This document shows positions 7,305 through 58,200 of a stretch of DNA of 64,000 nt, piece after piece; position 1 is the stretch's first letter, and the number at the start of each line of letters is the position of its first letter. Source of the stretch: Acidobacteriota bacterium (GTDB lineage: Bacteria > Acidobacteriota > UBA6911 > JACQSX01); assembly GCA_016211105.1 (NCBI GenBank), contig JACQSX010000050.1, positions 59,347 through 123,346 of the forward strand, read 5' to 3'. The position numbers were made by a program, and so were the translations under genes. The notes beneath the pieces were generated by a model that ran no database searches, was not told the DNA's origin, and saw nothing but the letters and a program-made list of their open reading frames with translations.

Positions 7305-7374
7305 TTCTGGTTTTCTACCTGGGAGCCTTAACTATCATACCCGTTACTCTAGTATTCGCTCGAGAGACTAAGTC

Positions 7375-7641
7375 CCTCGATTCATAAGTACGGTAACGTT
7401 TGCTGGTGGAGCTTGCGAGACGAGATCCAGGAGCGATGAGGAGGCGATGCAGCGGACATCGGCGACAACGTGCGACGCCGAGATCGCCCGCAACCCCCAC
7501 CAGCCCGGAGGGTTGCGGCGGGATGGCCCCGCTTTCTTTGTCGCTCCTCCTCGCCAATGAGCCCTGCATTGACTTGTCGTCGCTTCGCGAAATCAGGGCC
7601 ATCGCGCTCGCAACAAACGTTATCGTATTTATGAATCGAGG
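7375..7641. repeat. MITE-like repeat element, copy A (~28-bp terminal inverted repeats CCTCGATTCATAA[G/A]TACG[G/A]TAACGTTTGC)
   Basis: Left TIR 7375-7403 and right TIR 7614-7641 are reverse complements; internal sequence matches the reverse complement of a second copy at 63599-63749 but carries ~115 bp of extra internal sequence. Confidence 0.6.
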
Positions 7642-7695
7642 TACGAAAGGACAGGCACTGCAACAATCGTCGCCAAAACGAGATTGGAGGCACTT

Positions 7696-9683: not shown

Positions 9684-10718
9684 ATGAAATTCGGAATAAC
9701 TCTTCCGTCTTTTACATGGCCTGGCATGGATTGTCCAATGGCCCGGCGCATCACCGTAGACATGGCCAGACGAGCCGAGGAGCTGGGATTTGACTCTCTT
9801 ACCGTATGGGACCATATGCTGAGCGCCCCAGGACTTTACGGTGGTTCCTGGTTGGATCCCCTGGTCGTGCTCGGAGGTGCGGCGGCGGTAACCAAAACGA
9901 TCCCCATCGGCACACATATCCTGGTGGTCCCCATCCGCCATCCCGTCCTGTTGGCCAAAGAACTGGCGACCATAGATTCCATCTCCGGAGGACGTCTCTT
10001 TCTGGGAGTCGGACCAGGATGGAATGAGCCGGAGTTCACCTCGATGGGCATCGCCATGCGGGAGCGCGGCCGCCGCACCGATGAGATCCTCGACGCCCTT
10101 AGGCTGCTCCTGACTCAAGACAACGTCTCCTTCCATGGCGAGTTCTTTCACTTTGATAACGTCACGATCGAGCCTCGACCCAAGAAATATTTCACCATCT
10201 GGGTAGCCGGGGGCTCGCGTGTTCCCGATCCACTTTCCCCTGACAAACCATACATGGTCAAAACCGTGCTGGAGCGCATCCTCAAACACGCAGATGTATT
10301 TACTTGCCGCGCCTCTGGAAAAACCGAATGGGTTGCGCGCGATTTCGATGCAGTGAAGCAATATCTACAATCCGCGGGACGAGATCCCAACACTCTTGGC
10401 CTGGCTCACGTACAGGCTGGATATCTCGTAGACACGGCTGACCGAGAGAAAGCTCTCTCGCTGCAGCGCAGACCGATGCAGACCATGATGGGCTCTCACC
10501 GAAGTTGGGAACATCTGCAGGAGTGCTACATGGTAGGCACCTTCGATGATATTGTAGCGCGCTTGAAATTTCTGGAGAGCAAGGGTCTAGAACACGTGAC
10601 AATCCACCCTGCGGCGCCCGAAATGGAACAGCTTGATTTGTGGATGAAGAAGATCATCCAACCAAATTTCAGAGGAAGGGATCGGCCTCAGGTGGCTAAT
10701 TATCACACGCGACATTAG
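9684..10718 (+). CDS. luciferase-like monooxygenase (LLM) family flavin/F420-dependent oxidoreductase
   Basis: 344 aa, MKFGITLP start and TIM-barrel LLM-like sequence; adjacent to F0-synthase genes. Confidence 0.75.
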   Translation: MKFGITLPSFTWPGMDCPMARRITVDMARRAEELGFDSLTVWDHMLSAPGLYGGSWLDPLVVLGGAAAVTKTIPIGTHILVVPIRHPVLLAKELATIDSISGGRLFLGVGPGWNEPEFTSMGIAMRERGRRTDEILDALRLLLTQDNVSFHGEFFHFDNVTIEPRPKKYFTIWVAGGSRVPDPLSPDKPYMVKTVLERILKHADVFTCRASGKTEWVARDFDAVKQYLQSAGRDPNTLGLAHVQAGYLVDTADREKALSLQRRPMQTMMGSHRSWEHLQECYMVGTFDDIVARLKFLESKGLEHVTIHPAAPEMEQLDLWMKKIIQPNFRGRDRPQVANYHTRH

Positions 10719-12010
10719 GTTAGTAAGCCGGTGCGGTCCCGCTTCTCTCTCCTGTGAAATCGAAATTCGTTCAGACGAGTGAGATGATGATAGGAACCAA
10801 ACCTCGTGGCGTCTTCCTCTGTCAATCGGTCAAGTGGTTCCGGCGCATCACCGTTTGGGTCATCAAATCGACGGAGCGTCTTGTACAGGGTTGAGCGCTC
10901 TACCGGAGTCCGGCCAGCGTCCCGGATGCAGCGCCGAAGATCGCTCGGCCGAACCATCTGTCCATAACTTGCGCCGGCCGCCGTCGAGATACTCTCATTA
11001 ATCAACGTGCCTCCTAGGTCGTTCGCACCGGCAGCTAAGCAAGCCTGCGAAAGCTTCATTCCTTCCTTTACCCAGGAAACCTGGAGATTGGGAATGTCTC
11101 GGTTGAGTACGAGACGACTGACGGCGTGCATCTTGAGCACTTCCATTCCAGAGGCTCCGGCTCGTACGCCCTTGACCAGACCGTCCCGGTACAAGGGCGC
11201 CTCCCAAGGAACAAAGCTCAGCGGCACAAATTCGGTGAATCCTCCCGTCCGCCGCTGCAAGTTACGAAGTAGAAGAAGGTGTCTGGCGCAATGACGCCCG
11301 GTTTCGAGATGACCATACATGATCGTGGCGGTAGTCGGGATGCCCAGCGAATGCGCAGTGGTGATCACTTCGATCCACTGGGCAGTGTTAATGCGACCGG
11401 GAGAGATCCTGTTGCGGAGCTCGTCGTCAAGAATCTCGGCGGAAGTTCCCGGTAGACTGCCGATTCCGGAAGCTTGTAATTCGGTTAGGTATTCCTTGAT
11501 GCTCATGCCGGAGCATTGCACTCCGTAAAGGACCTCCTCTGGCGAGAACGCGTGAATATGGATTTGAGGAAGTGCCTCTTTGATGGCGCGGCAAAGTCGG
11601 AGGTAGAGGTCTCCTTCCATATCCGGGGGAAGACCTGCCTGGATACAGACCTCCGTCGCCCCATAGCGCTCCGCCTCACGCGCCCGACGAATGATTTCTT
11701 CCTCGGGAAGATAGTATCCCTCCTGGCTGCGATGAGTTCTGCTAAACGCGCAAAAACTGCAGCGTTTAATGCAGACATTGGTGAAATTGATGTTGCGGTT
11801 GACCACATAGGTGACGACGTCTCCCACTTTTTCCCGGCGCAGATGGTCAGCCGCAATCAGAAGGGCGAGAAACTCAGCTCCAGTCACGGAAAATAGCCAT
11901 GTGACTTCTTCTTCCGTCAAATCCCGCTCTTCCAAGGAGCGCTGAAGAATCTGGGCCGCTTCAGAGCTGATTTCGCTCAGGAGCTTTTCAATGCCGATCA
12001 AATCTTTCAC
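10715..12010 (-). CDS. cofH: F0 synthase subunit CofH (radical SAM; 5-amino-6-(D-ribitylamino)uracil-tyrosine 4-hydroxyphenyl transferase)
   Basis: Radical SAM CxxxCxxC motif CIKRCSFCAF; CofH-like length (431 aa); GTG start at 12010, 9 nt after cofG stop. Confidence 0.85.
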   Translation of the reverse strand: MKDLIGIEKLLSEISSEAAQILQRSLEERDLTEEEVTWLFSVTGAEFLALLIAADHLRREKVGDVVTYVVNRNINFTNVCIKRCSFCAFSRTHRSQEGYYLPEEEIIRRAREAERYGATEVCIQAGLPPDMEGDLYLRLCRAIKEALPQIHIHAFSPEEVLYGVQCSGMSIKEYLTELQASGIGSLPGTSAEILDDELRNRISPGRINTAQWIEVITTAHSLGIPTTATIMYGHLETGRHCARHLLLLRNLQRRTGGFTEFVPLSFVPWEAPLYRDGLVKGVRAGASGMEVLKMHAVSRLVLNRDIPNLQVSWVKEGMKLSQACLAAGANDLGGTLINESISTAAGASYGQMVRPSDLRRCIRDAGRTPVERSTLYKTLRRFDDPNGDAPEPLDRLTEEDATRFGSYHHLTRLNEFRFHRREKRDRTGLLT

Positions 12011-12019
12011 TCCTCTGAT

Positions 12020-13144
12020 TCATGTAAAAGCCAGATACCCCTGCGGATCAGCCTCGCAGCGAAGTCGCCGGAGCAGGTGTTCGGGCAGATAGTGATCGTT
12101 CTCCACAATGTACTCGGGATAAACAGGAAAGCGGGCTCGCAGCTCAAATCCCGCGGTGTCCATCTCCCTGCGCATTCGGGCAATGTGCGGCCAGGGCGCT
12201 TCTGGATTGACATAGTCGATGGTCACCGGCGAAATCCCTCCCCAATCGTTGATCCCGGCATTCAGGTAGATCAAGTATGAGTCATTGCCATCATCGGACG
12301 CCAGGTTGGGCGGCACCTGGATATTCATCTCACCGCCGAAAATAATTCTCGCCGTTGCCACCACTTGAAGCATCTCTGCCAGCGAGGCCTCGCGGGCGTG
12401 CTCCATCGGCGTGCCTGGCTTGGCACGGAAATTCTGAATAATCACCTCCTGGATATGACCATATTGCTCTTGAAGATCCCGGATGGCAAGCAATGCCTCT
12501 ACGCGTTCCTCGACCGTCTCGCCGATCCCAATCAAAAGACCGGTCGTAAATGGAATCTTCAGCTCTCCTGCTAAACGAAGCGGCCTCAACCGTACTTCTG
12601 GCCTCTTGCTGGGAGCATACTCGTGAGGCCCACCGGCTTGACTTAAGCGTGCACTGCTGCTCTCCAACATCAGCCCCATCGAGGCGTTGACCTGCTTGAG
12701 ATCTTCGAGTTCGGAGCGACTGAGCGTTCCGGGATTACTATGGGGATAAAGAGCGGTTTCTTGGAGCACTAATGCGCACATATCGCGCAAATATTCCAGA
12801 GTGCTGTCATAACCATGTTCTCGCAGCCAAGATCGTGCTTCAGGATAGCGTTGCTCCGGCCGTTCCCCAAGCACGAACAGCGCTTCACGACAGCCCGACC
12901 TCTCACCCGCTCGCGCGACCGCCAGCACCTCCTCCGCACTCATGTACAGGTGTTCCCCTTGCTGTGGGCTTTGCCTGAAAATACAGTAACCACAAAAGTC
13001 ACGGCACAATCGCGTGAGAGGAATAAACACTTTCGGGGAGAAACTCACCACGCGACCTTTTTTTTTGTCGCGGATCGTACGGGCGGCGGCACACAATTCG
13101 TCCACATTCATGCTCGTATCAATCGCCATGTTGCCGGCTTTCAT
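12020..13144 (-). CDS. cofG: F0 synthase subunit CofG (radical SAM; 7,8-didemethyl-8-hydroxy-5-deazariboflavin synthase)
   Basis: Radical SAM motif CRDFCGYC near N-terminus, 374 aa; immediately upstream of cofH on same strand. Confidence 0.85.
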   Translation of the reverse strand: MKAGNMAIDTSMNVDELCAAARTIRDKKKGRVVSFSPKVFIPLTRLCRDFCGYCIFRQSPQQGEHLYMSAEEVLAVARAGERSGCREALFVLGERPEQRYPEARSWLREHGYDSTLEYLRDMCALVLQETALYPHSNPGTLSRSELEDLKQVNASMGLMLESSSARLSQAGGPHEYAPSKRPEVRLRPLRLAGELKIPFTTGLLIGIGETVEERVEALLAIRDLQEQYGHIQEVIIQNFRAKPGTPMEHAREASLAEMLQVVATARIIFGGEMNIQVPPNLASDDGNDSYLIYLNAGINDWGGISPVTIDYVNPEAPWPHIARMRREMDTAGFELRARFPVYPEYIVENDHYLPEHLLRRLRCEADPQGYLAFT

Positions 13145-13202
13145 GCGTTCTCACCGTTCCTGCTCGGCATGCCCGGAGTGACCAACGACCCAGATATTTA
13201 CG

Positions 13203-13877
13203 TTACTCATGCTCAAGGCCTAGCACTCGGTATCGAGCGAACTTGATTTTGTACCGGCGGTTGATCATGACGGCCAATAGAGTCATTGCTTCAAGCGCGC
13301 GACAGGCGCGCAGCGGGCCAGCATCGATCCAGCGCAGTCCCGGAATTTTAGATACCACTTCGAGCGTATGCTCTTTAGCCTCAACAGAATCGGAAGAAAT
13401 AAAATCGTCGCATTCTAACCCTATATCTCGTTTCACGAGCAAATGCGCCGGCAAAGTCTTAAATGCCGCCACCAAGGGCACACGGTCCGGAAGCCGTCCG
13501 CGAATATATTCCGCTCCTGAGCCTTCACCTAAGTCCAGCAGGCGTGGTCCCTTATCGAAAACCACGGGAACGGTGACGTCAACCAAGATTTGATTCGAGG
13601 AAAACTGGTCGCGATACTGCTGCAAAACCGAATCCACGTGGACGAAAGGCACGGTAAGGAACAACAGATCTGAGTTCGCCACCAAGGTACGATTGTCCAC
13701 TCCTGCAACTCTTTCCTGTCCCAACTGCCGGTTAAGCTCGCCAGCTACCTGCTGTGCTCGTTCCAGCGAGCGGGAGCCCAAAGCTATCTGCAGACCCGCC
13801 GCCGCTAAACGCAGCGCGATGCCTTGTCCCTCCGTCCCGGTCCCGCTGATCATTCCGATCTTACATTCCTGCTTCAT
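13203..13877 (-). CDS. fno: NADPH-dependent F420 reductase (F420:NADP oxidoreductase-like, Rossmann fold)
   Basis: N-terminal Rossmann GxGxxG and GSRS region; ATG at 13877 overlaps upstream stop as ATGA. Confidence 0.7.
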   Translation of the reverse strand: MKQECKIGMISGTGTEGQGIALRLAAAGLQIALGSRSLERAQQVAGELNRQLGQERVAGVDNRTLVANSDLLFLTVPFVHVDSVLQQYRDQFSSNQILVDVTVPVVFDKGPRLLDLGEGSGAEYIRGRLPDRVPLVAAFKTLPAHLLVKRDIGLECDDFISSDSVEAKEHTLEVVSKIPGLRWIDAGPLRACRALEAMTLLAVMINRRYKIKFARYRVLGLEHE

Positions 13878-14539
13878 TCTGCTATTTCGATAAAGTCCAG
13901 ACCCCTGCGTCGATGCCAATCGCTGGGATCCGCCAGATACTCCTTCACCTGAGCTAGCGCTTCAGAAGATAGCAAGCTGAGTGCGCGCCCCGTCTCCAGG
14001 CAGCGAGAGATTCCCACCAAAGAATGCAACTTCACGCCGACACGCGCCAGACTCGCTTCGCCCCCCTGTTCGCGGTCGACCAAAACCAGGCAACGAGAAA
14101 TCATGCATCCCGCTTCTCTGATCGCCTCAATGAATGACAGCTTGCTTCCTCCATCGGTAATCAGATCCTCAAAAAGCAGAACTTCACCTTTTGGCACGCC
14201 TTCCAGACGACTCCCGGTACCGTGTTCCTTTTTTTTCTTGCGCACATACACGAAAGGCTTGTCCAATCTTTCCGCCAACCAAGCGCCAAAAGGGATTCCC
14301 GCAGTTTCGCCACCAGCAATACAGTCGGCAGCGATCTGGCGCTCGTGATACAGGCGTTGAGCAAAGCTAACAATGACACTGCGCGTGCCCGGATAGGAGA
14401 TCAAAAGACGACAGTTAATGTAGAGAGGTGTGAAATTCCCGGAGGACAATTGAAAGGGTTCCGTGCTGCTGACCTGGATCGCCCGATGCTCCCACAACAA
14501 TATTGAGATCAGTTCCCCTATTTTCTGATCCAGTCTCAT
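13874..14539 (-). CDS. pyrE: orotate phosphoribosyltransferase-like (type I PRTase)
   Basis: FQLSSGNFTPLYINCR and PRPP-binding loop LLFEDLITDGGS; internal ATG at 14539 chosen over longer track ORF. Confidence 0.65.
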   Translation of the reverse strand: MRLDQKIGELISILLWEHRAIQVSSTEPFQLSSGNFTPLYINCRLLISYPGTRSVIVSFAQRLYHERQIAADCIAGGETAGIPFGAWLAERLDKPFVYVRKKKKEHGTGSRLEGVPKGEVLLFEDLITDGGSKLSFIEAIREAGCMISRCLVLVDREQGGEASLARVGVKLHSLVGISRCLETGRALSLLSSEALAQVKEYLADPSDWHRRRGLDFIEIAE

Positions 14540-16820: not shown

Positions 16821-18032
16821 TCAGCCAATCTGAAAGAGACCGGCGGTCAGTTCCCGACAGAACACAGGCATTCGAGCCAGTTCCGCGGTTACCAGGTCAT
16901 GCATGACGCCAGAGACATCTGAAAGGCGAACTCCGGAATTGAGGTGCCCTTGCACATAAACGACTTCAGGTTGGTCAACAGGTTTGCCAATCTGGCTACA
17001 CAGCCACACGATAACTTCTTCCAAGCCGCGTATCTCGGTTTGGAGCTTATGAGCCAGTGAATACGCAAGTACATTGTAGATTTTTCCGACGTGACTCATG
17101 GGATTCTTCCCTGCTGCAGCCTCCGATCCCGCGGGACGGTTGAACGAGATCAGGCCATTGACGCGGTTGCCCCTACCCACTTCCCCAGAATCAGCATCCT
17201 CAGCAGAAGTGCCCAAGACAGATGAATAGATTCCAACCAGACCGACTCCAGGCCGATCGATAGGATTGAGCCTCAGCTTCAACTCATCCAGCGCGTCCAG
17301 CCGACTCTGTAAGTAGGCCAGAACCGCTTCATAAATCCTTGCCTTACTTCCGAAATATTTCCTTTCGCTCTCCAGATACCTTTCTATCAAAGGCATCGCG
17401 ACTGTAAGATGCAAACTTCTGCCGGTCCGCACACCCATCACCTTGACATCTTCTCCCGTTTCCGCAAATTGCTTTTTGAAGCTCTCCGAGTTCAAATAGC
17501 GTTCGGTCTCTAATACCAGACGCTCAGTCTCACTTAGAGGAGCATAGCCCACTGCGGCAGAGGTGTCGTTGGCGCCGATCACGCCGTCGGCGCGTCGGTA
17601 CAAGTCCGCCAGCGCTTCCGATCCCGGCTTTAGCTCTACTTCATAATGTAAATGGCGATCGGGATCAACGTGGCGTAGGTTCTTTCGCACCCAGCCCTTG
17701 GCCGCTTCAATCGCGATGCTCTCCACATCTATTTTCTGTTCCGCCCAAAATGAGGTGGCCCGATCCCCAAGGATGAGGCGCATCGGCTCTAAAATGCGGC
17801 CTCCGCCCCATCGATGTTCTGCCCGACCCGCGATCAAAAGCGCTTTATCGCAGTTATAGTGAAGCATACCGCCTGCTTGCTCCAAATAAGCCTTCGATAG
17901 AGCCTGCGATACATTCTCCATAATACCGTCACACACTGTATCGGGATGACCCGTTCCTTTTCGCTCCACAATCTCCACTTCAAGCTCGCTGGTCTTCAGT
18001 CCTTGCGCCTGCTCGATATATATCCGGTTCAT
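16821..18032 (-). CDS. archaeal-type S-adenosylmethionine synthetase (methionine adenosyltransferase, MAT family)
   Basis: ERKGTGHPDTVCDG, GANDTSAAVGYAPLSETERLVLETE, GRGNRVNGLIS, GKNPMSHVGKIYN motifs match the archaeal MAT family rather than bacterial MetK; AAGGA RBS before ATG 18032. Confidence 0.8.
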   Translation of the reverse strand: MNRIYIEQAQGLKTSELEVEIVERKGTGHPDTVCDGIMENVSQALSKAYLEQAGGMLHYNCDKALLIAGRAEHRWGGGRILEPMRLILGDRATSFWAEQKIDVESIAIEAAKGWVRKNLRHVDPDRHLHYEVELKPGSEALADLYRRADGVIGANDTSAAVGYAPLSETERLVLETERYLNSESFKKQFAETGEDVKVMGVRTGRSLHLTVAMPLIERYLESERKYFGSKARIYEAVLAYLQSRLDALDELKLRLNPIDRPGVGLVGIYSSVLGTSAEDADSGEVGRGNRVNGLISFNRPAGSEAAAGKNPMSHVGKIYNVLAYSLAHKLQTEIRGLEEVIVWLCSQIGKPVDQPEVVYVQGHLNSGVRLSDVSGVMHDLVTAELARMPVFCRELTAGLFQIG

Positions 18033-18043
18033 GGCTCTATTCC

Positions 18044-18583
18044 TTAGAGATACCCCTGTTCCCGCAGTTTTTCCACTACCCTGCGAGCGGCCCTGGCCGG
18101 ATCCTCCCACTCTCCGGAAACCACCACTTCAGGATTTTCGGGAGGTTCGTAGGCCGCCTGCAAGCCGGGAATCATCGTTGCCTCCCCCACCTCGGCCTTA
18201 CGGTAAATCCCCTTCGGATCTCTGGCCATACATATGTTCAGAGGGCACTCAACAAAAACTTCGATAAACCTTGTGATGCGCTGCCGGGCGCGATCCCGAT
18301 AGACGCGCCGGTTAGCGGTGGCATCGAAGATCACAGAAATCCCGTGTTTGGTAAGAAGCTCTCCAACATAGGCCATCGCCCCATACAAGATTTCTCTCTC
18401 CCCTTCACTGTAAGTTGGATGAGGGGTAAGGATCTGGCGCAACGCGTCAGATTCTAACACCTCCGGCGCCGTTTCTCTGCAAGATAGCTCCCGGACCAAG
18501 GCCTTGGTGAGTGTAGACTTTCCAGAAGCCGGCAAACCGGTGATCCAGATTGCAAACCCCGGTTCCACGCTTAACTCCCACAA
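18044..18583 (-). CDS. cysC: adenylyl-sulfate (APS) kinase family protein
   Basis: P-loop GLPASGKST and C-terminal FIEVFVECPLNICMARDPKGIYRKA resembling APS kinase. Confidence 0.75.
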   Translation of the reverse strand: MWELSVEPGFAIWITGLPASGKSTLTKALVRELSCRETAPEVLESDALRQILTPHPTYSEGEREILYGAMAYVGELLTKHGISVIFDATANRRVYRDRARQRITRFIEVFVECPLNICMARDPKGIYRKAEVGEATMIPGLQAAYEPPENPEVVVSGEWEDPARAARRVVEKLREQGYL

Positions 18584-27057: not shown

Positions 27058-27330
27058 TTGCCCCTTGTCCATGTCTCTTTCAAATATCGGCCAAACCGAG
27101 TACCCGTCGTAGCAAAAGGCATCATCGCCATTGGGCAGTTTGGGTGTCGTGTCATTACCATCGCTCAGTTTGGCATCGGGCTCTTCAGCGTCAGCCAGTT
27201 CACTGTTGCGGCCTTTGCCCTTGCGCAGTTCGCGTTGGCTTATTCTCTGATTGCCCAAATCGGTCTGTATATCCACCAACGATACGGACAGTTCGTGAAA
27301 GGCGTGATGGAAGTCATCAAGACTCTCTAA
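27058..27330 (+). CDS. decapeptide-repeat protein (five AQFG-type repeats of 10 aa)
   Basis: Repeats AIGQFG/TIAQFG/SVSQFT/ALAQFA/LIAQIG with 30-nt period, conserved at protein more than DNA level; no ATG start, same frame as zinc-ribbon ORF. Confidence 0.45.
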   Translation: MPLVHVSFKYRPNRVPVVAKGIIAIGQFGCRVITIAQFGIGLFSVSQFTVAAFALAQFALAYSLIAQIGLYIHQRYGQFVKGVMEVIKTL

Positions 27331-27347
27331 AAACTGCATACAGCCTA

Positions 27348-29600
27348 ATGAAAAGGAATCTGCTAACGATTGTCACCTGGGTAGTAACGCTGTTTCTCAC
27401 GTTGAGTCAGCCTGCCACTCCTGCTCGGGGACCCACAGAGTCGTCTCTACCCGCAGAGACGCGCCCTGGGGCGACTTTCGAACAGTGGGAAGGAGTCTTG
27501 CCTGCCTCTTACCGCACGCCAGCGGTCGGAGAGGTTACTGTCCGTGCCTCGGGAAGAGGGTACCCCTGGATCAACCTGGCCGACGGTCGCGACCTTCCCA
27601 TCTTTTATCCGGAAAAGGACGCGGTAGGGGTGCTGAAAAACCACGCAATGCGACCTTTGTCGCTGGCTGCGGCCGACTTCGATGAGGATGGTGTGCCGGA
27701 CCTGGTGAGTGGTTACGAGGCAGCCGGAGCCGGTTTCCTGCTGGTGCAGCGAGGCAACATTGATTTCCTGCACCCGTACACAGCAGGCGCGCAGCAACGC
27801 AAGGCCTCGGGCGAGGTTAATTCTTTTCCTTTTGCACCGCAGGCGATTGTGGTTGAGTTGCCCGCTGCGCCAGATTTTCTGGGAAGCGGCGACTTTGACG
27901 CCGACGGCCACTGGGATCTTGTAGCGGCTGCGCGGGGAAGCAACCTAGTTCACTGGGCATCGGGCGACGGCCGAGGCGCATTTACAGCAGCAAGGGAAAT
28001 CGCCTTGCCTGGAACCGTCACAGCGCTGGCCACCGGTGATGTCAACAGGGCGGATGGCCTGGAAGACATTCTGGTGGGCGTCTCAGGCAAGAATGGACCA
28101 GAGCTCTTGGTGTTTGAGGGACCGGCGGGAGCCCTGGCGGAGGGTACTGCGGCCGGAGGAAGAGATAAGGGCGCTGAAGGCCTGCTGCATAGGCCGGAAA
28201 GTTTTCCGCTGGATGCCGAGGCAGTTTCCATTGTCACGGGACAGCTCAACCTAGATTATCCGACCGACGTTGCCGTTGCGGCCGGAACCGAGTTACTGAT
28301 CATTTATGGCCGCGACCACAGGCTGTCTTGGAATCAGGAGTCCAGACAGCAAGTAGGTCCGGCGACAACCGAGCGCCTCCAATTTTCAGTCGCGATCCGC
28401 TCTATCGCGGCGGGAGACTTTCGTGGAAATGGTAGCGCTGCTCTGGCCCTGCTATTCAATGATGGTCGCCTGGAGCTCTGGGACGCCGATATCGAGAGGG
28501 AGCGGCAGCAGTTGCAAAGTAATGGCGCCACAACAGCGGCTGAGAGCAGTGCCCTTTCTCACGCCCAGTCCGGCGATGTTCACCGTGCATGGAAGCGCTC
28601 CTGGAATCCGGGAGCGGTGCTCCAAGCTCCTCCCAGTTCCCAAGCTCTATCGGCTCTGCTGGTCAGGACGCGTGCCGCCAGCATTGCGAAAGATGCTCTG
28701 CTGGTGATCGATTCTGTCAGCCGGCAATTGCATCTTTGGGTTGAGAACGAAGTTTCCGACGGGCGATCCGACAACTTCACCAAGCTGGAAAGCGGCTCCT
28801 TGTTGATTTCTGAGACTCTTCAAATGCAGGAATCTCCGGTTTCCGTCTTACCCATGCGCCTGAACGGCGATGCCCTGACTGATCTGGCCATTTTGAAGAG
28901 CGGAGGCCATCCCATTGTGTGGGCCGAGACGGCTCCGGGAGCGATTATCACGGTCAACAGTAGCGGCGACACGTCCGCCCGAGACGCCGTGTTGACGCTG
29001 CGAGAGGCGATGTCGATTGCCAATGGAAGTTTGGCAGTGTCGAGCCTGACTTCTGCAGAAAGGGCTCAGGTTTCCGGAACACCGGCAAATCCAGGGCTGG
29101 ATGAAATCCGTTTTGCAGGAGTGACATCCATTACTGTTGGGGTAGGAGGATTTCCCAGCCCGGGTACATCCAATCCGATTACGATCGACGCAAGATCGGC
29201 GGGAAGAGTGGAGGTCAAACAGGCCGGCAACGCTGGTGTCCAGGTCAGCGTTTCAACCGGCAACAGCACAATTCGGAACCTCGCTATTGGCGGCATCCGA
29301 ATGGGAACGAGGGGGTCCAATGTAGTGGCTGGCAACTACCTCGGTTTTGATCTCAATCAGAACACTTTTGCATCGCCGGGAAGTTCTTATGGCATTTCGG
29401 CTGACAATGGGTCGACTGACAACAGGATCGGTGGAACCACGGCAGCAGATCGCAATGTAATTGCCATGTCGGGCTTCGCGCGTGATGACCTGTCGATTTC
29501 CGGCGGCTCGCACCGCAATCAAGTCCTGGGCAACTACGCCGGCACCGATGTCGCACAGGCACGCAGGCCAAGGGCAATCGACGCGGAATCACGATTGTAG
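27348..29600 (+). CDS. giant secreted FG-GAP/VCBS-repeat, CSLREA and right-handed beta-helix protein, fragment 1 of 3 (frameshifted gene)
   Basis: Signal peptide MKRNLLTIVTWVVTLFLTLSQPA; FG-GAP-like DxDGxxD repeats; CSLREA-like TLREAMSIANGS; beta-helix repeats; reading frame breaks near 29557. Confidence 0.75.
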   Translation: MKRNLLTIVTWVVTLFLTLSQPATPARGPTESSLPAETRPGATFEQWEGVLPASYRTPAVGEVTVRASGRGYPWINLADGRDLPIFYPEKDAVGVLKNHAMRPLSLAAADFDEDGVPDLVSGYEAAGAGFLLVQRGNIDFLHPYTAGAQQRKASGEVNSFPFAPQAIVVELPAAPDFLGSGDFDADGHWDLVAAARGSNLVHWASGDGRGAFTAAREIALPGTVTALATGDVNRADGLEDILVGVSGKNGPELLVFEGPAGALAEGTAAGGRDKGAEGLLHRPESFPLDAEAVSIVTGQLNLDYPTDVAVAAGTELLIIYGRDHRLSWNQESRQQVGPATTERLQFSVAIRSIAAGDFRGNGSAALALLFNDGRLELWDADIERERQQLQSNGATTAAESSALSHAQSGDVHRAWKRSWNPGAVLQAPPSSQALSALLVRTRAASIAKDALLVIDSVSRQLHLWVENEVSDGRSDNFTKLESGSLLISETLQMQESPVSVLPMRLNGDALTDLAILKSGGHPIVWAETAPGAIITVNSSGDTSARDAVLTLREAMSIANGSLAVSSLTSAERAQVSGTPANPGLDEIRFAGVTSITVGVGGFPSPGTSNPITIDARSAGRVEVKQAGNAGVQVSVSTGNSTIRNLAIGGIRMGTRGSNVVAGNYLGFDLNQNTFASPGSSYGISADNGSTDNRIGGTTAADRNVIAMSGFARDDLSISGGSHRNQVLGNYAGTDVAQARRPRAIDAESRL

Positions 29601-29614
29601 ACTCACAGAACAAC

Positions 29615-30736
29615 GTGATTGGGGGCACAGAGGCCGGAGCGGGCAACCTGATTTCCGGGGTAGTAATCGACCGCAGCGTGGGGCCGGATCCGGACGGTAA
29701 CAGAATCCAGGGAAATATCATCGGCCTGAACGCCCGCGGGGACGCGAGGGTGAGTAATCAGTCTTACGGCATCGCTCTTCACTCCGGGAAAGAGACGACA
29801 ATCGGCGGGACATCGCCTGCCGCCCGAAACGTAGTTTCAGGAAACGTGGCAGACGGCATTTTTCTCAATAGCAGTGTCACAGGGATCCAGATTCAGGGCA
29901 ACTATATTGGAACCGATGCCGCCGGTTCTCAGGCCATCGGCAATGGAGACGTTAATACTCCTTTTTCGGAGGAGGCTATTCACATCCAGGGCCCAAAAAA
30001 CATCGTGGGCGGTTCGGTGCCGGGAGCCCGCAATGTCATCTCTGGAAACAGGGGAAGCGGGATTGTCGTCGCTTCCCAGGGGGAAAACCAAATCCTTGGA
30101 AACTACATCGGAGTATCTGCGAGCGGTGCCTCCGCCTTAGGCAATGGCTGGGACGGGATTATCGTGAGCAATTCCGCCAGGAATGTCATCGGCGGCGCGA
30201 CGGCAGGGGCGGGCAACGTCATCTCGGGCAACCGGCGGAACGGCGTCGACATGGGAGGCAATGAATCTACCGGAAACCGGTTGCAGGGAAACCTGATCGG
30301 CACCGATGCCACTGGGACCCAATCCCTCGGAAACAGCGAGGTCGGGGTGAATTTGGGTGGAAACAATAACACCCTCGGAGGATTGACTCCGGCGGAGCGC
30401 AATGTCATCTCCGGAAACACGCTGGATGGAGTGATCATCAGTGGAGTTTTTGGAAACCAGCGGAACAGGATCATCGGGAACTACATTGGCACGGATATCC
30501 GCGGGATTGGGGCGCTCGGCAACGGTGGTAGCGGAGTGCTGTTGATCACCGAAGAGCAGTTTGTCTCGGGGGCACGGAAACCGGCGCAGGCAACACCATC
30601 GCGTTCAACCGCGGTGACGGCGTCTGGGTCAACGCCGGATCGCGTAACTCCATTGTATCCAATTCTATCTTCTCCAACGCGAAACTGGGAATTGAACTGG
30701 GAACCGACTCCAGGACTGATTTGGGCAACGGTGTGA
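29615..30736 (+). CDS. beta-helix repeat protein, fragment 2 of 3 (same gene, shifted frame)
   Basis: Continuous NxIxGNxIGTDAxGxxxLGN beta-helix repeats; frame open from 29489; track start GTG is artefactual. Confidence 0.7.
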   Translation: MIGGTEAGAGNLISGVVIDRSVGPDPDGNRIQGNIIGLNARGDARVSNQSYGIALHSGKETTIGGTSPAARNVVSGNVADGIFLNSSVTGIQIQGNYIGTDAAGSQAIGNGDVNTPFSEEAIHIQGPKNIVGGSVPGARNVISGNRGSGIVVASQGENQILGNYIGVSASGASALGNGWDGIIVSNSARNVIGGATAGAGNVISGNRRNGVDMGGNESTGNRLQGNLIGTDATGTQSLGNSEVGVNLGGNNNTLGGLTPAERNVISGNTLDGVIISGVFGNQRNRIIGNYIGTDIRGIGALGNGGSGVLLITEEQFVSGARKPAQATPSRSTAVTASGSTPDRVTPLYPILSSPTRNWELNWEPTPGLIWATV

Positions 30737-33081
30737 CACCTAATGATCCCGGTGATGCCGACGCGGGTGCCAATCAGCTACAGAACTTTCCGGTCCTGAC
30801 GCCGGCGCCGGGCGGCGCGGGCCTGACCGTAGCGCTCAACAGCAGAAGCACCGATAGCCCCTTTCGCATCGAGCTTTTCTCCAACGCGGCCTGCGATCCC
30901 TCTGGGCACGGGGAAGGCGAACGACTATTGCAGGTGATAGAAAATGTGAGCCTGGATTCGAGCGGCAACTTTGCGCGCACCATTGCATTGCCTTCCGGGC
31001 GGTTTTTCACGGCAACCGCTACCGATCGTAATGGCAATACCTCGGAGTTTTCCGCCTGCGCGGGGGCTGCGCCCCCTTTTGAAGCATTCATCGTCAATTC
31101 AACCTCCGATCGGCCAGACAGGACGACAGGAGATGGCCGCTGCGATACAGGGGAAACCATCGGGGGGCGGGCCGAGTGCACGCTGCGGGCGGCGATCCAG
31201 GAGGCCAACAGCAAGAGCGGGACAGACGTCATTCGTTTCAACATCGCCGGGATGGTTCCTCACCGCATTCAGCCAGGATCTCCGTTGCCTATAGTGACAG
31301 ACCCGGTGACGATTGATGGGTCCTCGCAGCCTGGGTTTGATACTGCGCCTGTGGTGGAGCTAAACGGTCTGGAAGCAGGAAGCCAGGCAAGCGGCCTGGA
31401 AGTGGCTGCCGGGAACTCAACCATCAAGGGGTTGATCATCAGCCAGTTCAAAGTCCATGGGATCTTAATCAGGGGCAGCGGTGCAAACCGCATTGTCAAT
31501 AATCTGATCGGCACTGACAGCAGTGTCTCGCGCGTAATCGGAAACGTGCACTCGGGAATCGCGGTATCGGAATCTGCCAACAACATTATCGGGGGCGAAC
31601 CGGTTGACGGTAACGTTATTGCCGGAAATGGAAATGATGCGATCACCGAAGGCTTCGCCGCCGGTATTTTCATTGCTGGAACAAACGCCAAGAAGAACGT
31701 GATTGCGGGAAACGCGATATTGGCTAATGTCAGAGGGATCTTTATCATCGACGCATCGGGCACGACCATCGGCGGAGAAACGATTCAGCGGGCCAATGCG
31801 ATACGGTTTAATGTCCGTGAAGGCATCGTTATCTCCGGGGCGGCCGTTTCCAATTCCATTCTGGTCAACTCCATCTCCGATAATGGCGCCCTCGGAATTG
31901 ATCTTGCAGGGGACGGCCCTGAGGGGATCGATCTGCGAGACGCAGATACCGGGCCGAACGGTTTGCAGAACGCGGCGGAGATCTATTCAGCGACGGCTAC
32001 GGCCAGCGGCGATACCAGCCGGGTCCGGATGCGGCTTAGAAGCGCTAAGAACGAAACCTTTACCGTTCGATTCTTCACCGGCACTACGCCAGATCCTTCG
32101 GGTTACGGGGAAGGCGATACTTTTGTTCTTACTAGAAACGTCACCACGAGCGACTCAGGCTATGGCCCCACATCATTCGTATCTCCGGTGAAGCTGGGAA
32201 AATTCCTCAGTTGCACAGTCACAGACGCACAGGGCAATACGTCCGAGTTCTCGGCGGCGGCGCCGATCAAGCTCGATAGCGACGGCGATAGCGTGAGCGA
32301 CGAGGAGGAGAATCTTAATGGCGGGGACGCGAACGGGGACTTTACACCCGACAGGCTGCAGCCAAATGTGCAACCCCTCACAACTTCGTCCGGGCGACGT
32401 GTCGCCATCGAAGTTTCGCAAGAGAGTGTGTTAACCAATGCAAGCACGTATCTCGCCGCGTTGGCAGGCGCAACTTTATTTGAAGGCCAGTTTGGAAGGC
32501 CGCTTGGCTTTTACGAGCTGTTTGCCCGATTTACCGTGGGCGCAAAGTCTCCTTTCCAGGTTATGGGTGGTTCAACGACTGTAACGCTCTTTGTCCCACC
32601 CGAACTTAAGTTCACGTCCTACCTTAATTACGGACCGACACCGGACAATCCAACGCCTCACTTTTACCAATTCATGTTTGACGGAAAGACGGGCGCGGAG
32701 TTCAAAACGGGCCGGATTCTGCTTCACCTGGTCGATGGGCAGCGCGGCGATCATGACCTCGCCGCCAATGGAGAGATCACCACGCTGGGCGGGCCGGTCA
32801 TCGGTATGCCGAACAGATTTTTCATTCCTCTTTACCGGTCTGACCCCTCAACCTTTACCGGCTACGCAGTTTCAAATTTTTCTGCGCGTGACGCCAACAT
32901 TCAGTTCACCGCATTGGATTTCGACGGGATTGCGTTGAGCACGCTGAATAACCCAAGCTCATTTCTCCTCAAGCCTGGGAACCAATTGGCGCTGCTGGGG
33001 AGGCAAGTATTTTCCGACGATTATTTAGATCCGCAGAGAGAGACGACTCTGTCCGTCCCGGAGCAGGAAGTAGCAGGCTGA
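30721..33081 (+). CDS. beta-helix repeat protein C-terminal part, fragment 3 of 3 (same gene, shifted frame)
   Basis: Frame open upstream and continues beta-helix repeats across a GGGGG run at 30568-30572; C-terminal domain with DGQRGDHDLAANGEITTLGGP. Confidence 0.7.
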   Translation: MGNGVTPNDPGDADAGANQLQNFPVLTPAPGGAGLTVALNSRSTDSPFRIELFSNAACDPSGHGEGERLLQVIENVSLDSSGNFARTIALPSGRFFTATATDRNGNTSEFSACAGAAPPFEAFIVNSTSDRPDRTTGDGRCDTGETIGGRAECTLRAAIQEANSKSGTDVIRFNIAGMVPHRIQPGSPLPIVTDPVTIDGSSQPGFDTAPVVELNGLEAGSQASGLEVAAGNSTIKGLIISQFKVHGILIRGSGANRIVNNLIGTDSSVSRVIGNVHSGIAVSESANNIIGGEPVDGNVIAGNGNDAITEGFAAGIFIAGTNAKKNVIAGNAILANVRGIFIIDASGTTIGGETIQRANAIRFNVREGIVISGAAVSNSILVNSISDNGALGIDLAGDGPEGIDLRDADTGPNGLQNAAEIYSATATASGDTSRVRMRLRSAKNETFTVRFFTGTTPDPSGYGEGDTFVLTRNVTTSDSGYGPTSFVSPVKLGKFLSCTVTDAQGNTSEFSAAAPIKLDSDGDSVSDEEENLNGGDANGDFTPDRLQPNVQPLTTSSGRRVAIEVSQESVLTNASTYLAALAGATLFEGQFGRPLGFYELFARFTVGAKSPFQVMGGSTTVTLFVPPELKFTSYLNYGPTPDNPTPHFYQFMFDGKTGAEFKTGRILLHLVDGQRGDHDLAANGEITTLGGPVIGMPNRFFIPLYRSDPSTFTGYAVSNFSARDANIQFTALDFDGIALSTLNNPSSFLLKPGNQLALLGRQVFSDDYLDPQRETTLSVPEQEVAG

Positions 33082-33752
33082 CTTAACATGAGAAGCAGCG
33101 CTGCCGCCCAGGCGACAATCGTTAGCGGATTCCTTCTCATTAGGACCCTTATTCTAGCTTTAAGACTCTCACCACTCCAAGATCCGGCATTAAAGGAAAG
33201 CACGCAAGGGAAAAACAGGGTAGAGTCTTCTATTCTTACCGATAGGGGAACAACCGGTGGAGGGCTGGAGATTTACCTCATTCGGGTTTTCAACCTGCTT
33301 TTGTACAACACGTCGACTGCTTACCGAACCGAGCCCCTATTCTAACTTTGCAGCCTGATTCGGTCCAGTGCGCGAAGTGCCGAATCAAAAATCTACTCGA
33401 AGGATTCGTTGACTGATTTAGGTTGCTTGAAATTGACCGACTGCCTACTTCTGAGGCAAACAAGAATCAACTGCAAGGGGGGGGACCAAAGCCGCCGCCG
33501 CTCAAAAGTCAAAGGAGCGCGTCCACTTCAGACTAGCGAACGGCCACGCAGACCGGAATCGTAACCGACGGAACCGCGACGATCAGAGAGCGCCTGGAAG
33601 AACGGACTCGCTTCGGGGAAGCCGCCGCCAGAAGAGCTGCTGGCTCTTAAATGAACAACATTGGTATCGAGGAAGGGACCTGCAGGTGAAGTCAATAACT
33701 TACGTCCTTCGCGGTCAAAGAAGTTTCTGAAAGCGGCCGGAACGTTCCGCCA

Positions 33753-34004
33753 TTACTGACTTTCGCCGCTCCGCCGGTTGTTCAGACCGCGCTGCTCGGG
33801 CGAAAACCCATGCAATTCAGCGATCGTTCCATCTTCTCTGAAAACTCGAATCCGGATAGGAACCCCAGGGGGGAGTTCCAGTTGGCTCAAGGCCGCGTCG
33901 ACGGTGCCAGAAGTTGCAATCACCAGCGGGCTATCCTGCTTGACAATTTTCCATCCTTTCTCGAAACGCAAAATTTCATAGACGATCTCCCTGAACTGCG
34001 GCAT
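33753..34004 (-). CDS. small hypothetical protein (83 aa)
   Basis: GAGGAGGG 4 nt upstream of ATG; downstream of BON gene on same strand. Confidence 0.5.
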   Translation of the reverse strand: MPQFREIVYEILRFEKGWKIVKQDSPLVIATSGTVDAALSQLELPPGVPIRIRVFREDGTIAELHGFSPEQRGLNNRRSGESQ

Positions 34005-34173
34005 CGCGCCCTCCTCTCTGACCTGAATCCCAAACAGGGCGAATGTTTTTCTCGACTTACCTCTTTGGCGAGCGATGAATCTACTATTAGCTCCTTACGC
34101 CTTCCTGCCGATACAACTTCTTGCTGGTACCCGTGCTCCAACCGGTAAATTACAGTCTTAGCACCTCCACAAG

Positions 34174-53618: not shown

Positions 53619-55277
53619 ATGACGGTTGGAAAAACCGCAGCTCTCTCTTTTTTGTGTCTGTTCGCGACCTCGCCAACGCCGATTTGCGGTCAGGAGGTAA
53701 CGCAGTATCTGCCGCAGATAGCCGACGGGGGAGGAGCGATCACAACGTTTTTTACAGTGAACCAGGCGGAGACAGCAGTCACTGTGACCATTGACGCGTT
53801 TTCTCCCGACGCGTCGCCTATGTCGGTGTTGAGTACAGGCAGTTCGGTGACATTTACACTGCCAATCGGAGGTTCCGCCTTTGTTAGAACATTAGGGTCG
53901 TTGGGCGGCTTTTCTCGCGCCGGTTTTGCCCGAGTTCGCTCCAGCGGGATGACGGGTGTGGCCGCAATCTTCCAGTTTTTTGATGCTGGTGGAAATCTCC
54001 TGTCAGAAGCGGGCGTGTTGCCGTCGCCACTAGTAAAAGGGTTTTCCATAACGGCGGCCTTCAGTCCTGCCCAAGGAGTGAACACCGGCTTGGCGGTAGC
54101 GAGTCCTGTGAGCGACTCGAATTTGACGCTCTCGTTGATGAACCCGGACGGCAGCGTGCGCAGGACGGCCAGTTTGAGTGTGCCGGCCGGAGGACAGAGG
54201 GCGCGGTTTCTAAGCGAGACGACTCCGCCGCTGTTTACCGGATTGGATGTGATCTATGGCGCAGTCAAAATCACCAGCGATGTCCCGGTTGCTCCGGTGA
54301 CACTGCGGACGGATGGAACGCAGTTGACCACCGTGCCGGTGATTACTCCCACGCTTGAGGCACAGGGACCGTCCGGGCCTGCGGGTCCGCAAGGTCCAAC
54401 AGGCCCCACTGGACCTCAGGGGCCTGCAGGTCCGCCGGGTGCCCCCGGGCCCGCAGGTCCAGCAGGCGTCAGCGGCCCACAGGGGCCAGCAGGCCCAACC
54501 GGCGCCACCGGGTCCGCAGGTCCAACCGGCGCGACCGGGCCTGCAGGAACCTTTTCACCCGGTGCCAGTATCGAGGGTTCGACCGCCTCGGCGCTGATTA
54601 CCTTCACCAACAGTGGAACCGGCTCAAGTGTTTATGGTTTGCACAGCAGCTCCAGCGGAACTGAGCCTGGCCTGCGAGGGGAAACTTACTCAACCCAGGC
54701 AAGTGCGGCTGGGATGATTGGAAGGGTAAGAGCTGCCTCGCCGGGTGGCTTCTCTGCTGGAGTCCGAGGAATTAATGAGGGGACCGGCAGCCAGGGTATT
54801 GGAGTCTGGGGATCGCAAAACGGTAGCGGCTGGGGACTCTACGGTACCTCAGTTTCTGGTAGGGGAGTCTTTGGGACGTCTGATGCCGGAGTCGGCGTGT
54901 ATGGTACGTCTGAGTCCTCCTTCGGAGTTGTTGGGAAAACGTCCACCGGGTCCGGTGTGCTGGCAGAAAGTAGCAGCCCAGACGGGAGCGCCCTTGAAAT
55001 CAGAAACGGCGCCATCAAAGTGTCAGGCAATCCCAAACCGGCCTTTGTTCACACCAGCAAAGGGAAGAGTTTGAGAACGTACATTGACCATCCGCTGACC
55101 AATGGAAAACCGAATGCCATTCTGATCGTCACGCCTGTTGGCGGCAACTACACAGCACGAGCTGTTGGGGTGGAATACGATAGTGACTCTAATTACCAGC
55201 AATGGACAATCTATAACCTCGATTTTACAGACCAGGCGGTTGGCCAGCGATTCAACGTCCTTGTTATTCAACAGTGA
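53619..55277 (+). CDS. secreted collagen-like (G-X-Y) repeat protein with N-terminal copy of the shared surface domain
   Basis: ~20 Gly-X-Y triplets ([25 protein letters not shown]...); signal peptide; AAGGAGG RBS. Confidence 0.8.
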
Positions 55278-55278
55278 C

Positions 55279-58200
55279 TTATTGCAGCCGCGTTACCGGC
55301 AGTGTTGTGAACTGGCCGGCTTGGCTGCCCAATTGAATCGCGGTCGCCGCGATGCCGCCCCCTTCGGCGGTCACCGTCAGCGTCCCTTCAAAATTGTTGG
55401 TGTCCGCACTGGGGAAAAGCTCGTCAATAAAACGGGCCACGTGACCACCTGCTTTCAGCGCTATCGTCGTTGTGCCTCCCGCGACCGGTTGTCCGCTGGC
55501 ATTACGCAATACCAGGTGCAACGTTACTGCTCTGCCCGTCGCGTTGACCGCAACGCCCGTGTTGATCCCGGTTTCCCGGCTGCGACGAACTGGCGAGATG
55601 AATCCGTTGAAGCTACCGCCTCCGCCGACGCCGGCAATCCCGATGCCCGGCAACGTGAAGCGTAGCACTCCCCCCACGACTCCTTCCGTGACATTTGCTC
55701 GAGCCGAGCCAGTGGTGACTGCCCCCAGACCGTCGGTCGTGAAAACGGCCCCGCCCTGAGGAGCGATGTCAAACGGAATATCGCTGGCTGAGGCCCCGCC
55801 GTTGACAGAGATCGGTAGACGGTTACCGTCATCGTTGAGAAAAGCCAGCTCCCCTCGGGCCCGCTCCGTGGCCGAGGGATTAGTCAAAAACAGAGAGGAC
55901 GAGAGATTGCCGCCATTGCCGAGGTGAGCAAAATAGACCGTCCCGCCGGCGGGCTCTGGAGAAATCGGGGTGACTGGGAGCGTAGTAAATTCACCAGGCC
56001 TTCCACCCACTTGAATCGCCGTTGCCGCGATTGGGCTGCCCGTGACCGAGAGCGTTCCTTGGAAATCTCCCAGGCCCGGAAATAGTTCCTGAATAAAGCG
56101 GGCCACATGGCCATCGACTGCGATGGGTAGTTGTCCTTGGCGAAAAGCGGCGCCATTGAGACCCTTGAGTGTCAGCCTCAGATTGGTTGCGGGCCCAAAA
56201 TTGAAAACCGCGATTCCCGTGCTGACTCCCTGGGCACTGTTTCTAGTAATTGGCGTGATAAAGGAATCTACAAGCTGACTCTCTCCTACTCCGGCAATTC
56301 CCAATCCGGGAGCTGAAAAACGAACCACTCCGCCCAGCGGCACATTGGAGAGCACCTGGGCTGAGCCTGTCACGAGAGTCCCTATTCCATCGCTGTTGAA
56401 CGTGACGCTGCCCAGCGGCGGGATAGTAAAGTCGACGCCGTTGTCGACAGGCCCCCCATTCAACGCCAGCGGCAACGGTTTACCATCATCATCGGAGAAA
56501 TCGATGCCGCCTTCGGCCGTTGTGGTTGCAGAGGAATTCGTCAGATCTACAGAAGAGACAAACTGCGACCCGTTGCCCAACTGGGCAAACAGGAACAAGT
56601 GTAGGATCTTCTCCACATTAATGATGCTGTAGGCGCCCCCCGTGACCGGATCGGTAACCAACGCGGAAGCATTTCGTTGCTCTCCAATCTCACCAGCCAC
56701 ATCTGTTCCCGTGTTGCCCTTTTCTCCCGAACCTTTTGAAAGAACACTGGCGCTAAAACCGCCGTTTAACACAACCCTGTCTGTCCCACCTCCGCCATCG
56801 ATGTTCTCCCTCTCCCCGGGCGGCACGTCTCCAGCCCGGAGGATAATTGTGTCATCACCGTTGCCGCCGAGCATGTTGTCTCTGCCGGTTCCACCAAGCA
56901 AGGTGTCGTGGCCCCCGCGGCCGTCTAAAGTGTCATTTGCAGGCCGACCATCCAGAAAGTCATTCCCTTCGCCTCCGACCAGATTGTCAATCCCGGGGCC
57001 GCCAACCAAAACCTGGTTCGGGACACCCGGGAGCGTGGTACTGGTGGTCGTCTGCGTGCGGGTTGTCGTGGTTACGGTGACGAATGTGCTGGTAGCCGTC
57101 CGGGTTGTGGACGTAGCGGTGCCAGTGGGAGAAGTGCCGGTTGTTGAGGTGGCAGTGCCCGTCACGGACGTTGCAGTTCCTGTTGTTGAAGGACTCGTCG
57201 TGGAAGTAGCGCTGCCGGTCGTGGTAGTGGCAGTAGATGACGTTCCGCTTCCTGTGGTTGAAGTACCCGTCGAAGAGGTGGGTGGGATCGTTGTAGTTGT
57301 GGTTATCGTTGTCGTGCCCGTGGTCGACGTCCCCGTAGCGGTAGTCGAGGAGCTTGTCAGGGTAGCAGTCGCCGTCGTGGTGGTCACCGTCCCCGTCGTC
57401 GTGCCAGTTGTCGTCGTCGTCGTGGACACGCTGAGTTGTTGATTTCCGAAATCCACACCCAAAGCAATCGCATCGCTCGCGGTTGCGACGTCCGGGTTTG
57501 GCGTGGTCTGTTTCCAGCCGGGTTGGAGAACCTCTCGGACCTTGAATGTCCCCGCACTTAAATTGACGAAGTTGTAATTTCCGCCTGAGTCTGTAAGCTG
57601 CGAGGCCTCTCCACTGTCCAAGATTCCGTTGCCGTTATCATCCAGGAAGATTCTCCAGCCTCCGATTCCCGGCTCGCCTGCATCCCTGACACCATCGCCG
57701 TCGAGATCTTCGAATTTCGTCCCCCTGATCGAAGCAAGCTTAAAGTTGCCGAAGTTAACGCCTGATCGATCGATACCACTGCTAGATGCGAAGTCGCTCG
57801 GGTCTGAAGTCGTCTGTTTCCAGCCGGCTTGCAGCACCTCTCGCACCCTAAGTGTTCCTGGGCCCAGATTACCGAAAGTGTAGTTTCCGCTTGCGTCCGT
57901 AAGCTGCGAAGCCTCTCCGCTGTCCAAGGTTCCATTGAGATTATCGTCCAGAAAGATCCTCCAGCCCGAAAGCCCCGGCTCGCCTGTGTCTTTGACCCCA
58001 TCGCCGTCCAGATCTTCGAATTTTGTTCCACTGATTGTGATTAGCTTGAAGTTGCCGAAATCCGCTCCGGAAACATTTTGGCCGCTCACCGTCGTGATAT
58101 TGCGATCCCCGGCGGTCTGTTTCCAGCCAGGCGTCGGAACCAGCCACTCTCGGAGCCTGCAAGTTCCGGGACCCACAGGGGTGGGTGCACCTCCAAGACT

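Follow-up and report, generated by a model that had tools for sequence, protein, structure and literature searches.

Are three neighbouring open reading frames (ORFs) on the plus strand of an Acidobacteria contig three proteins or one broken gene, and, if the latter, does the break lie in the assembly, in a reversible switch or in a gene that has died? The locus occupies 27348-33081 of a 64,000-nucleotide window, by which we mean the whole stretch of DNA that was analysed; the window belongs to a 127,069-bp contig of a GenBank metagenome-assembled genome (MAG) of the Acidobacteria, whose host is an uncultured soil or groundwater Acidobacterium, and MBI4457242.1 is encoded nearby. We consider it likely that the gene is a real, recently inactivated pseudogene of a giant secreted adhesin-like surface protein. 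Compared with its best homologue, P0001, and with seven other homologues, its reading frame is disrupted by two frame changes and by a truncation in the middle of a domain, and these lesions lie in the DNA rather than being an artefact of one assembly.

The first ORF (frame 0) extends over 27144-29600 and has a credible ATG at 27348, giving 750 amino acids (aa); the second (frame 2, 29615-30736) has 373 aa and the third (frame 1, 30721-33081) has 786 aa. Both frame changes are of the -1 kind, with one base missing or two bases extra, and addition of one G at both sites yields a single ORF of 1,911 aa with no internal stops. The three pieces of the gene and the coding sequences (CDSs) that GenBank places in them are the following.

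27348-29600, plus strand: fragment 1, frame 0; GenBank CDS MBI4457243.1, 'VCBS repeat-containing protein', 750 aa (the exact product)
29555-30572, plus strand: fragment 2, frame 2; body of beta-helix module 1
29615-30736, plus strand: GenBank CDS in fragment 2, MBI4457244.1, 'hypothetical protein HY644_15300', 373 aa
30571-33036, plus strand: fragment 3, frame 1; matches P0001 and the domain profiles
30733-33081, plus strand: GenBank CDS in fragment 3, MBI4457245.1, 'right-handed parallel beta-helix repeat-containing protein', 782 aa

The idea that NCBI had annotated the gene as an untranslated pseudogene was considered and rejected, all three pieces being deposited as CDSs.

Each piece contributes a consecutive part of one domain architecture. 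Fragment 1 opens with a signal-peptide-like N-terminus (MKRNLLTIVTWVVTLFLTLSQPA, judged by eye), followed by an FG-GAP/VCBS region, a 'LTLREA' cap that was likewise identified by eye and precedes beta-helix module 1, and the first turns of that module. Its membership of FG-GAP_3 (Pfam PF13517) is clear, at 45.8 bits against a cut-off of 26.9 (residues 182-243, E 9e-12); FG-GAP itself (PF01839) reaches 16.2 bits, under its cut-off of 22.1. Residues 1-736 are native, while the final 14 (QARRPRAIDAESRL) are out of frame and run into a TAG at 29598-29600. Fragment 2 shows the repeat form GNxIGTDxxGxxxxGN...IGGxxxGAGNxISGN, and module 1 as such was recognised through its repeat motif and its homologues. 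MBI4457244.1 is given a GTG start that encodes the V of an internal NNVIGG motif, and nothing resembling a Shine-Dalgarno sequence precedes it. Fragment 3 carries the end of module 1, an immunoglobulin (Ig)-like spacer (..NGNTSEFS) and a CSLREA cap with beta-helix module 2, and after these another spacer, a choice-of-anchor-U-like domain and a partial C-terminal beta-sandwich domain, of which the first ~75 residues of ~110 are present. The cap matches CSLREA_Nterm (NCBIfam TIGR04214) at 32.4 bits against a cut-off of 25 (residues 1248-1288, CTLRAAIQEAN), and module 2 (residues 1349-1524) matches both Beta_helix (PF13229, 31.4 bits, gathering score 25.9) and NosD (PF05048, 34.8 bits, gathering score 23.6); the choice-of-anchor U profile (NCBIfam NF041766) gives 31.4 bits over residues 1740-1818, with a curated cut-off of 32. 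Both fragments 2 and 3 start inside repeats, with neither a signal peptide nor a ribosome-binding-like sequence.

Relatives are plentiful, with hundreds of large proteins from Acidobacteriota and Verrucomicrobiota matching at E < 1e-160; the Acidobacteriota carriers include Blastocatellia and Pyrinomonadaceae. The best of them, P0001 (from Logan SRR32818443), has 2,296 aa and is 48% identical over 97% of the repaired protein. A tblastn search with P0001 against the whole window returned exactly three colinear high-scoring segment pairs (HSPs), each with E 0.

27450-29564, frame 3: P0001 residues 72-741, 50.6% identity
29558-30538, frame 2: P0001 residues 739-1078, 53.1% identity
30556-33012, frame 1: P0001 residues 1085-1905, 45.0% identity

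No P0001 residues are skipped at either boundary, and P0001 and the seven further relatives are uninterrupted single ORFs where aligned; the split layout is not conserved. An earlier, sequence-only reading had proposed a single FG-GAP/CSLREA/beta-helix gene divided into three ORFs by two frameshifts, and had named alignment to an intact relative as a check. The colinear HSPs in frames 3, 2 and 1, which cross both boundaries, and the Pfam and NCBIfam profiles bear the proposal out. The size of ~1,900 aa given there agrees with the repaired ORF of 1,911 aa but does not describe the whole ancestral protein, because the 3' end is truncated.

The two frame changes differ in kind.

29554-29559, plus strand: junction 1, gCACAGG; frame 0 to frame 2
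30568-30572, plus strand: junction 2, GGGGG, one G short; frame 2 to frame 1

At junction 2, six Gs would give ...FVSGGTETGAGNTIAFN (...QFVSGGTETGAGNTIAFN). This repair is gapless against P0001 and restores the canonical '..GGxxxGAGN' motif of the family; among 120 homologues, the residues preceding GGxxxGAGN-type motifs are GG in 159 of 249 cases and a single G in 12. Runs of G are frequent in the window, which holds 25 of five, six of six, one of seven and one of eight. Junction 1 (gtcgCACAGGcacg) is another matter, for 29558-29559 is a mere GG within gtcgcaCAGGcacg and not a homopolymer run. Adding a G there produces 'GTDVAQGTQAKGN' ('GNYAGTDVAQGTQAKGN'), in which the repeat unit has one residue too many. 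Of 469 family repeats in the same 120 homologues, 386 show a spacing of 7 between GNxxGxx and the next GN and only 3 a spacing of 8, and the repaired protein is forced into a one-residue gap against P0001 at precisely that position. Deleting one CA of gCACAg (29554-29557) instead gives 'GTDVAGTQAKGN' ('GNYAGTDVAGTQAKGN') with canonical spacing, one gap opening fewer against P0001 and a slightly higher score. Both the register of the family's repeats and the alignment to P0001 make the lesion at junction 1 most likely a 2-bp tandem duplication (CA to CACA) rather than the loss of one base, although the exact event is beyond proof from one sequence. The sequence-only reading had placed a minus-one-G event in a G run at both sites and held that restoring a G in each continues the repeat; this fits junction 2, whereas at junction 1 there are only two Gs, the unit comes out a residue long and a CA duplication is favoured. 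Such a duplication is not a typical sequencing error.

The gene is damaged at its 3' end as well, where it meets an inverted copy of its own beginning.

33034-33040, no strand assigned: truncation/rearrangement junction; similarity to homologues ends at ...SDDYLDPQ (Q = 33034-33036)
27344-27457, plus strand: left arm of the inverted repeat; from 4 nucleotides ahead of the ATG through the signal-peptide codons into the first mature residues
33030-33144, minus strand: right arm of the inverted repeat; diverged inverted copy of the gene's 5' end
33145-34170, no strand assigned: gene-poor stretch of ~1 kb to the right of the inverted copy, with no convincing gene

In the eight homologues aligned here (P0001 and the seven others), '...QLAxLGxxIFxxDxxSxQ' is followed by 'GWVxLxTDNxxxGSFFQFG', then by three further beta-sandwich repeats and a conserved end, '...LLSAVPPTV'. 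In the window, '...QVFSDDYLDPQ' is followed by 'RETTLSVPEQEVAG*', the antisense of the signal-peptide copy, such that the window departs from the homologues exactly where the inverted 5' copy begins. When the C-terminal 243 residues were searched exhaustively with phmmer, 2,271 relatives came up, and the matches that reach the query end stop at residues 221-229. The break thus falls at ~33037, in the middle of a domain, with ~400 codons lost relative to P0001; in the rest of the window, tblastn of P0001 detected no further piece of the gene on either strand. The two arms are 86% identical over 76 nucleotides and 82% over 39, separated by one 1-nucleotide indel (blastn E 2.5e-27), and a 28-mer core of the repeat occurs twice where no occurrence is expected. 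Read on the minus strand, the right arm gives MRRNPLTIVAWAAALLLMLSQPAT, the 1-nucleotide indel and then PAPGRTESSLS, to be compared with the gene's own start, MKRNLLTIVTWVVTLFLTLSQPAT; it runs over the final ~15 codons of fragment 3 and over its stop. The right arm probably represents what is left of a paralogue's 5' end, and the gene-poor stretch beyond it, which has no Pfam or Rfam matches, would be the former upstream region of that lost paralogue. The same stretch contains the window's only run of eight Gs (33479-33486) and a possible 83-aa minus-strand ORF (33753-34004), which gene callers also predict on Logan contigs. Around homologues (158 loci), inverted 5' copies of this sort were not found; the few long inverted repeats there (L006, L039) are intergenic and not analogous.

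Whether the lesions are real could be judged from Logan, in which each public sequencing run is assembled separately with an assembler other than that of the GenBank MAG. The exact 373-aa product of fragment 2 is called on Logan contigs too. Contig L159 (SRR12113401) is 100% identical to the window over 27317-30766 and contig L160 (SRR12113390) over 29001-32211; both span both frameshifts, and CACAGG and GGGGG are unchanged in each. The 3' junction is crossed at 100% identity by contigs of three runs, L161 (SRR12113390), L162 (SRR12113401) and L163 (SRR12113418). An assembly artefact or random read error behind the lesions is very unlikely because independent assemblies carry CACAGG and GGGGG unchanged. 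The chance that two random errors in ~55 kb of coding sequence would both strike this 5.7-kb gene is ~1%, whereas a concentration of all three lesions in one gene is as expected once that gene is dead. A Pfam control over ~45 other ORFs of the window found no domain split across adjacent ORFs, and most family-matching control ORFs have near full-length domain coverage. Two repetitive surface proteins served as a control for repeat-driven assembly errors, and both are intact: a collagen-repeat/DUF7452 surface-type protein (53619-55277, plus strand) and a 1,228-aa SdrD_B/RTX surface-type protein (55279-58965, minus strand) whose internal DNA repeats are ~77% identical (57484-58059). Within the gene itself, the internal DNA repeats that might have caused an assembly slip are only 65-89% identical, and none lies at the junctions. 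Logan contigs of different runs end or begin at 30737-30766 and 32163-32211 with 30-nucleotide overlaps, which suggests branches of the assembly graph caused by 31-mers shared with paralogues or by strain variation within the gene.

From these observations a history of the gene can be proposed. The product of the ancestral gene would have begun with a signal peptide and an FG-GAP/VCBS propeller region. Two right-handed beta-helix modules would have come next, each with a CSLREA cap and with an Ig-like spacer after it, and then a choice-of-anchor-U-like domain and ~4 C-terminal beta-sandwich repeats. The gene would then have suffered a frameshift at 29554-29559, most likely by duplication of a CA dinucleotide; the loss of one G from a run of six at 30568-30572; and a rearrangement at ~33037 that would have removed the last ~400 codons and left what remained joined to a paralogue's 5' end in inverted orientation. 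For the rearrangement we infer, as the simplest history, that two paralogues with similar 5' ends stood in convergent orientation and that a single deletion reached from the interior of the C-terminal domain of the first to codon ~35 of the second; an inversion of larger extent, its other breakpoint lying beyond the window, would leave the same picture. Translation from the ATG at 27348 would end at the TAG at 29598 and give a 750-aa secreted FG-GAP fragment, and the downstream two thirds of the gene are probably untranslated because they have no signal peptide and no credible start of their own. The gene is presumably non-functional. Its decay appears recent because no in-frame stops are met after repair and identity to P0001 does not fall past the frameshifts.

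Several observations weigh against a recent pseudogene and have to be set beside it. No stop interrupts the frames past the shifts for 373 and 786 codons, as would also hold for a gene still in use. All three runs are likely to share one study site, and they speak for the reality of the lesions in that population rather than for their fixation in the species, and consensus assemblies mask minor alleles, such that a subpopulation with an intact gene is possible. Scans of genome contigs and metagenome contigs for the same species or close strains found nothing above ~50% identity. Exact look-ups of the neighbour gene and of P0121, made as a search for close strains, returned no contig, and the contigs of P0001, P0122 and P0123 share no gene order with the window, their neighbourhoods being different. 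In favour of the pseudogene, a search of the protein collection with a junction-spanning peptide recovered no in-frame allele and no protein of at least 90% identity across a junction.

The chief competitor of the pseudogene is a truncated N-terminal product that is still useful: the gene would have undergone fission, and the 750-aa secreted FG-GAP piece, possibly with others, would be expressed and retain a function. Fragment 1 does retain a start codon, the signal peptide and the entire FG-GAP region, many members of the family have only 1,100-1,300 aa with FG-GAP and beta-helix parts, and GenBank lists three proteins. We nevertheless think fission unlikely, for fragment 1 stops within a beta-helix repeat after its out-of-frame residues, the other two fragments begin within repeats and have the signals of neither secretion nor translation initiation, and both boundaries lie inside conserved repeat units and not between domains. 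That the gene is intact and the indels are consensus errors of the MAG, as the sequence-only reading had allowed, would suit a lesion within a run of five Gs, a metagenomic source and a repaired ORF without stops, yet it is highly improbable when two further read sets put through another assembler agree with the window across both frameshift junctions, three agree across the 3' junction, junction 1 is not a homopolymer and no other gene among the ~45 checked is broken. Slipped-strand phase variation, which that reading had also offered, would make this a contingency gene that slips at the G run and perhaps at CACA, with the sampled population in the OFF state. It is a surface-protein gene, one of its lesions is a -1 change in a G tract, and its frames remain open, all of which a phase-variable locus would share; even so, such a switch is improbable here. 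A run of five Gs is short and common (25 in the window), neither site has a long simple-sequence tract, the consensus of two runs holds the same allele without a length variant, no in-frame variant occurs among proteins, and two OFF lesions together with an irreversible 3' truncation would all have to revert. Of the three explanations that the sequence-only reading had put forward, a true pseudogene fits best and gains further from the truncation present in three runs.

Two other ways of keeping the gene alive fare worse. Recoding at both sites, whether by programmed -1 ribosomal frameshifting or by transcriptional slippage, would yield a full-length protein, and both shifts are indeed in the -1 direction; moreover, re-pairing of a P-site tRNA-Gly on G GGG G at junction 2 would give exactly the homologous sequence. 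Against this, there is no X XXY YYZ heptamer in 29489-29600 or 30532-30736, where just G GGG GCA occurs at junction 2, junction 1 offers, at the place of the switch that homology calls for, no codon able to re-pair in the -1 frame, the region is a single frame in P0001, and a scan of the whole window against Rfam found no known RNA element; we regard recoding as the least probable of the readings weighed here. In an invertible cassette, the ~115-nucleotide inverted repeats would let the 5.6-kb body move between two expression sites. The arms lie exactly at the 5' and 3' ends of the gene, and both contain an ATG of their own with a stretch that codes for a signal-peptide-like sequence. Frequent recombination would, however, homogenise the arms, which in fact show an indel and identities of 86% and 82%, the ~45 ORFs checked in the 64-kb window encode no recombinase, integrase or transposase domain, three independent assemblies show a single orientation at the right junction, that junction cuts a protein domain mid-way, and the long inverted repeats at homologue loci are intergenic and not at gene 5' ends; we hold inversion of this kind to be extremely improbable, though above recoding. 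A broader form of the idea, in which the locus can be switched by low-rate reversion of the G tract or the CA repeat or by occasional inversion through the diverged 5' copies, is as improbable as phase variation; if true, the locus would be a silent reserve copy of a giant adhesin, kept by a mechanism undescribed in Acidobacteriota. Scans for promoters and terminators gave results at chance level.

For the recent pseudogene that we favour, the practical consequence lies in annotation. The three GenBank proteins would be fragments of one decayed gene and need correction, because three fragments of one gene make three spurious entries in protein databases and family counts. The case also illustrates a way of checking a MAG frameshift when the original reads are not at hand: sibling runs have public assemblies made independently, and these can be compared. 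Acidobacteria of soil and groundwater have large sets of surface proteins that evolve fast, and the gene would be a further instance of how such sets turn over. In its state the gene matches an ordinary pseudogene hit several times, and it opens no new question.

Elsewhere in the window, some features deserve record in their own right. A small palindromic element resembling a miniature inverted-repeat transposable element (MITE) is present in two copies (7369-7647 and 63593-63755), with terminal inverted repeats of ~32 nucleotides (GTACCTCGATTCATAAATACGATAACGTTTGC) and arms that are 87-94% identical between the copies; the copy at 63.6 kb folds into a long hairpin (DNA fold z = -7.9), and no transposase was seen in the window. 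An apparent coenzyme F420-related cluster (9684-13919) consists of a luciferase-like monooxygenase (9684-10718), two CofH/CofG-type radical SAM proteins (10715-12010 and 12020-13144) and a protein with an F420-dependent NADP oxidoreductase domain (13203-13919). A full-length archaeal-type S-adenosylmethionine synthetase (16821-18110, minus strand; Pfam PF01941, E 1e-147) is encoded in this bacterial MAG and adjoins an APS kinase (18044-18583), an APH-family kinase and a radical SAM protein.

Set beside known systems, the protein is of a kind already known, abundant and functionally uncharacterised. In the literature searched, mentions of CSLREA concern Acinetobacter only and are unrelated, no experimentally known function was found for the family, and searches on the run and assembly accessions gave nothing relevant. 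The gene shares domain order and repeat motifs with FG-GAP/VCBS and CSLREA-capped beta-helix proteins (annotated as 'FG-GAP-like repeat-containing' or 'CSLREA domain-containing'); unlike the intact members of the family, the copy in the window has two interruptions and has lost most of the C-terminal beta-sandwich array, including the '...LLSAVPPTV' end. Inversion-based switching of surface proteins is exemplified by the sap locus of Campylobacter fetus, by shufflons and by invertons. Here, too, inverted copies of a conserved 5' coding region flank the gene (82-86% complementary), but the arms are diverged (86%), there is neither a second cassette between them nor a recombinase nearby, and one orientation is seen. 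Phase-variable adhesin contingency loci with homopolymeric tracts are known from Neisseria, Haemophilus and Campylobacter, with tracts typically of 8 or more. The gene resembles them in being a surface-protein gene with a G-tract frameshift and differs in that its tract has 5-6 Gs with the same length in different runs, its second frameshift is free of any tract, and it bears an additional, irreversible truncation. The state of the gene is like that of ordinary bacterial pseudogenes that have gathered small indels together with a deletion or rearrangement: they likewise combine multiple independent disabling lesions with intact neighbours and recognisable frames, and the gene described here is slightly uncommon among them only in that its truncation is joined to an inverted paralogous 5' end.

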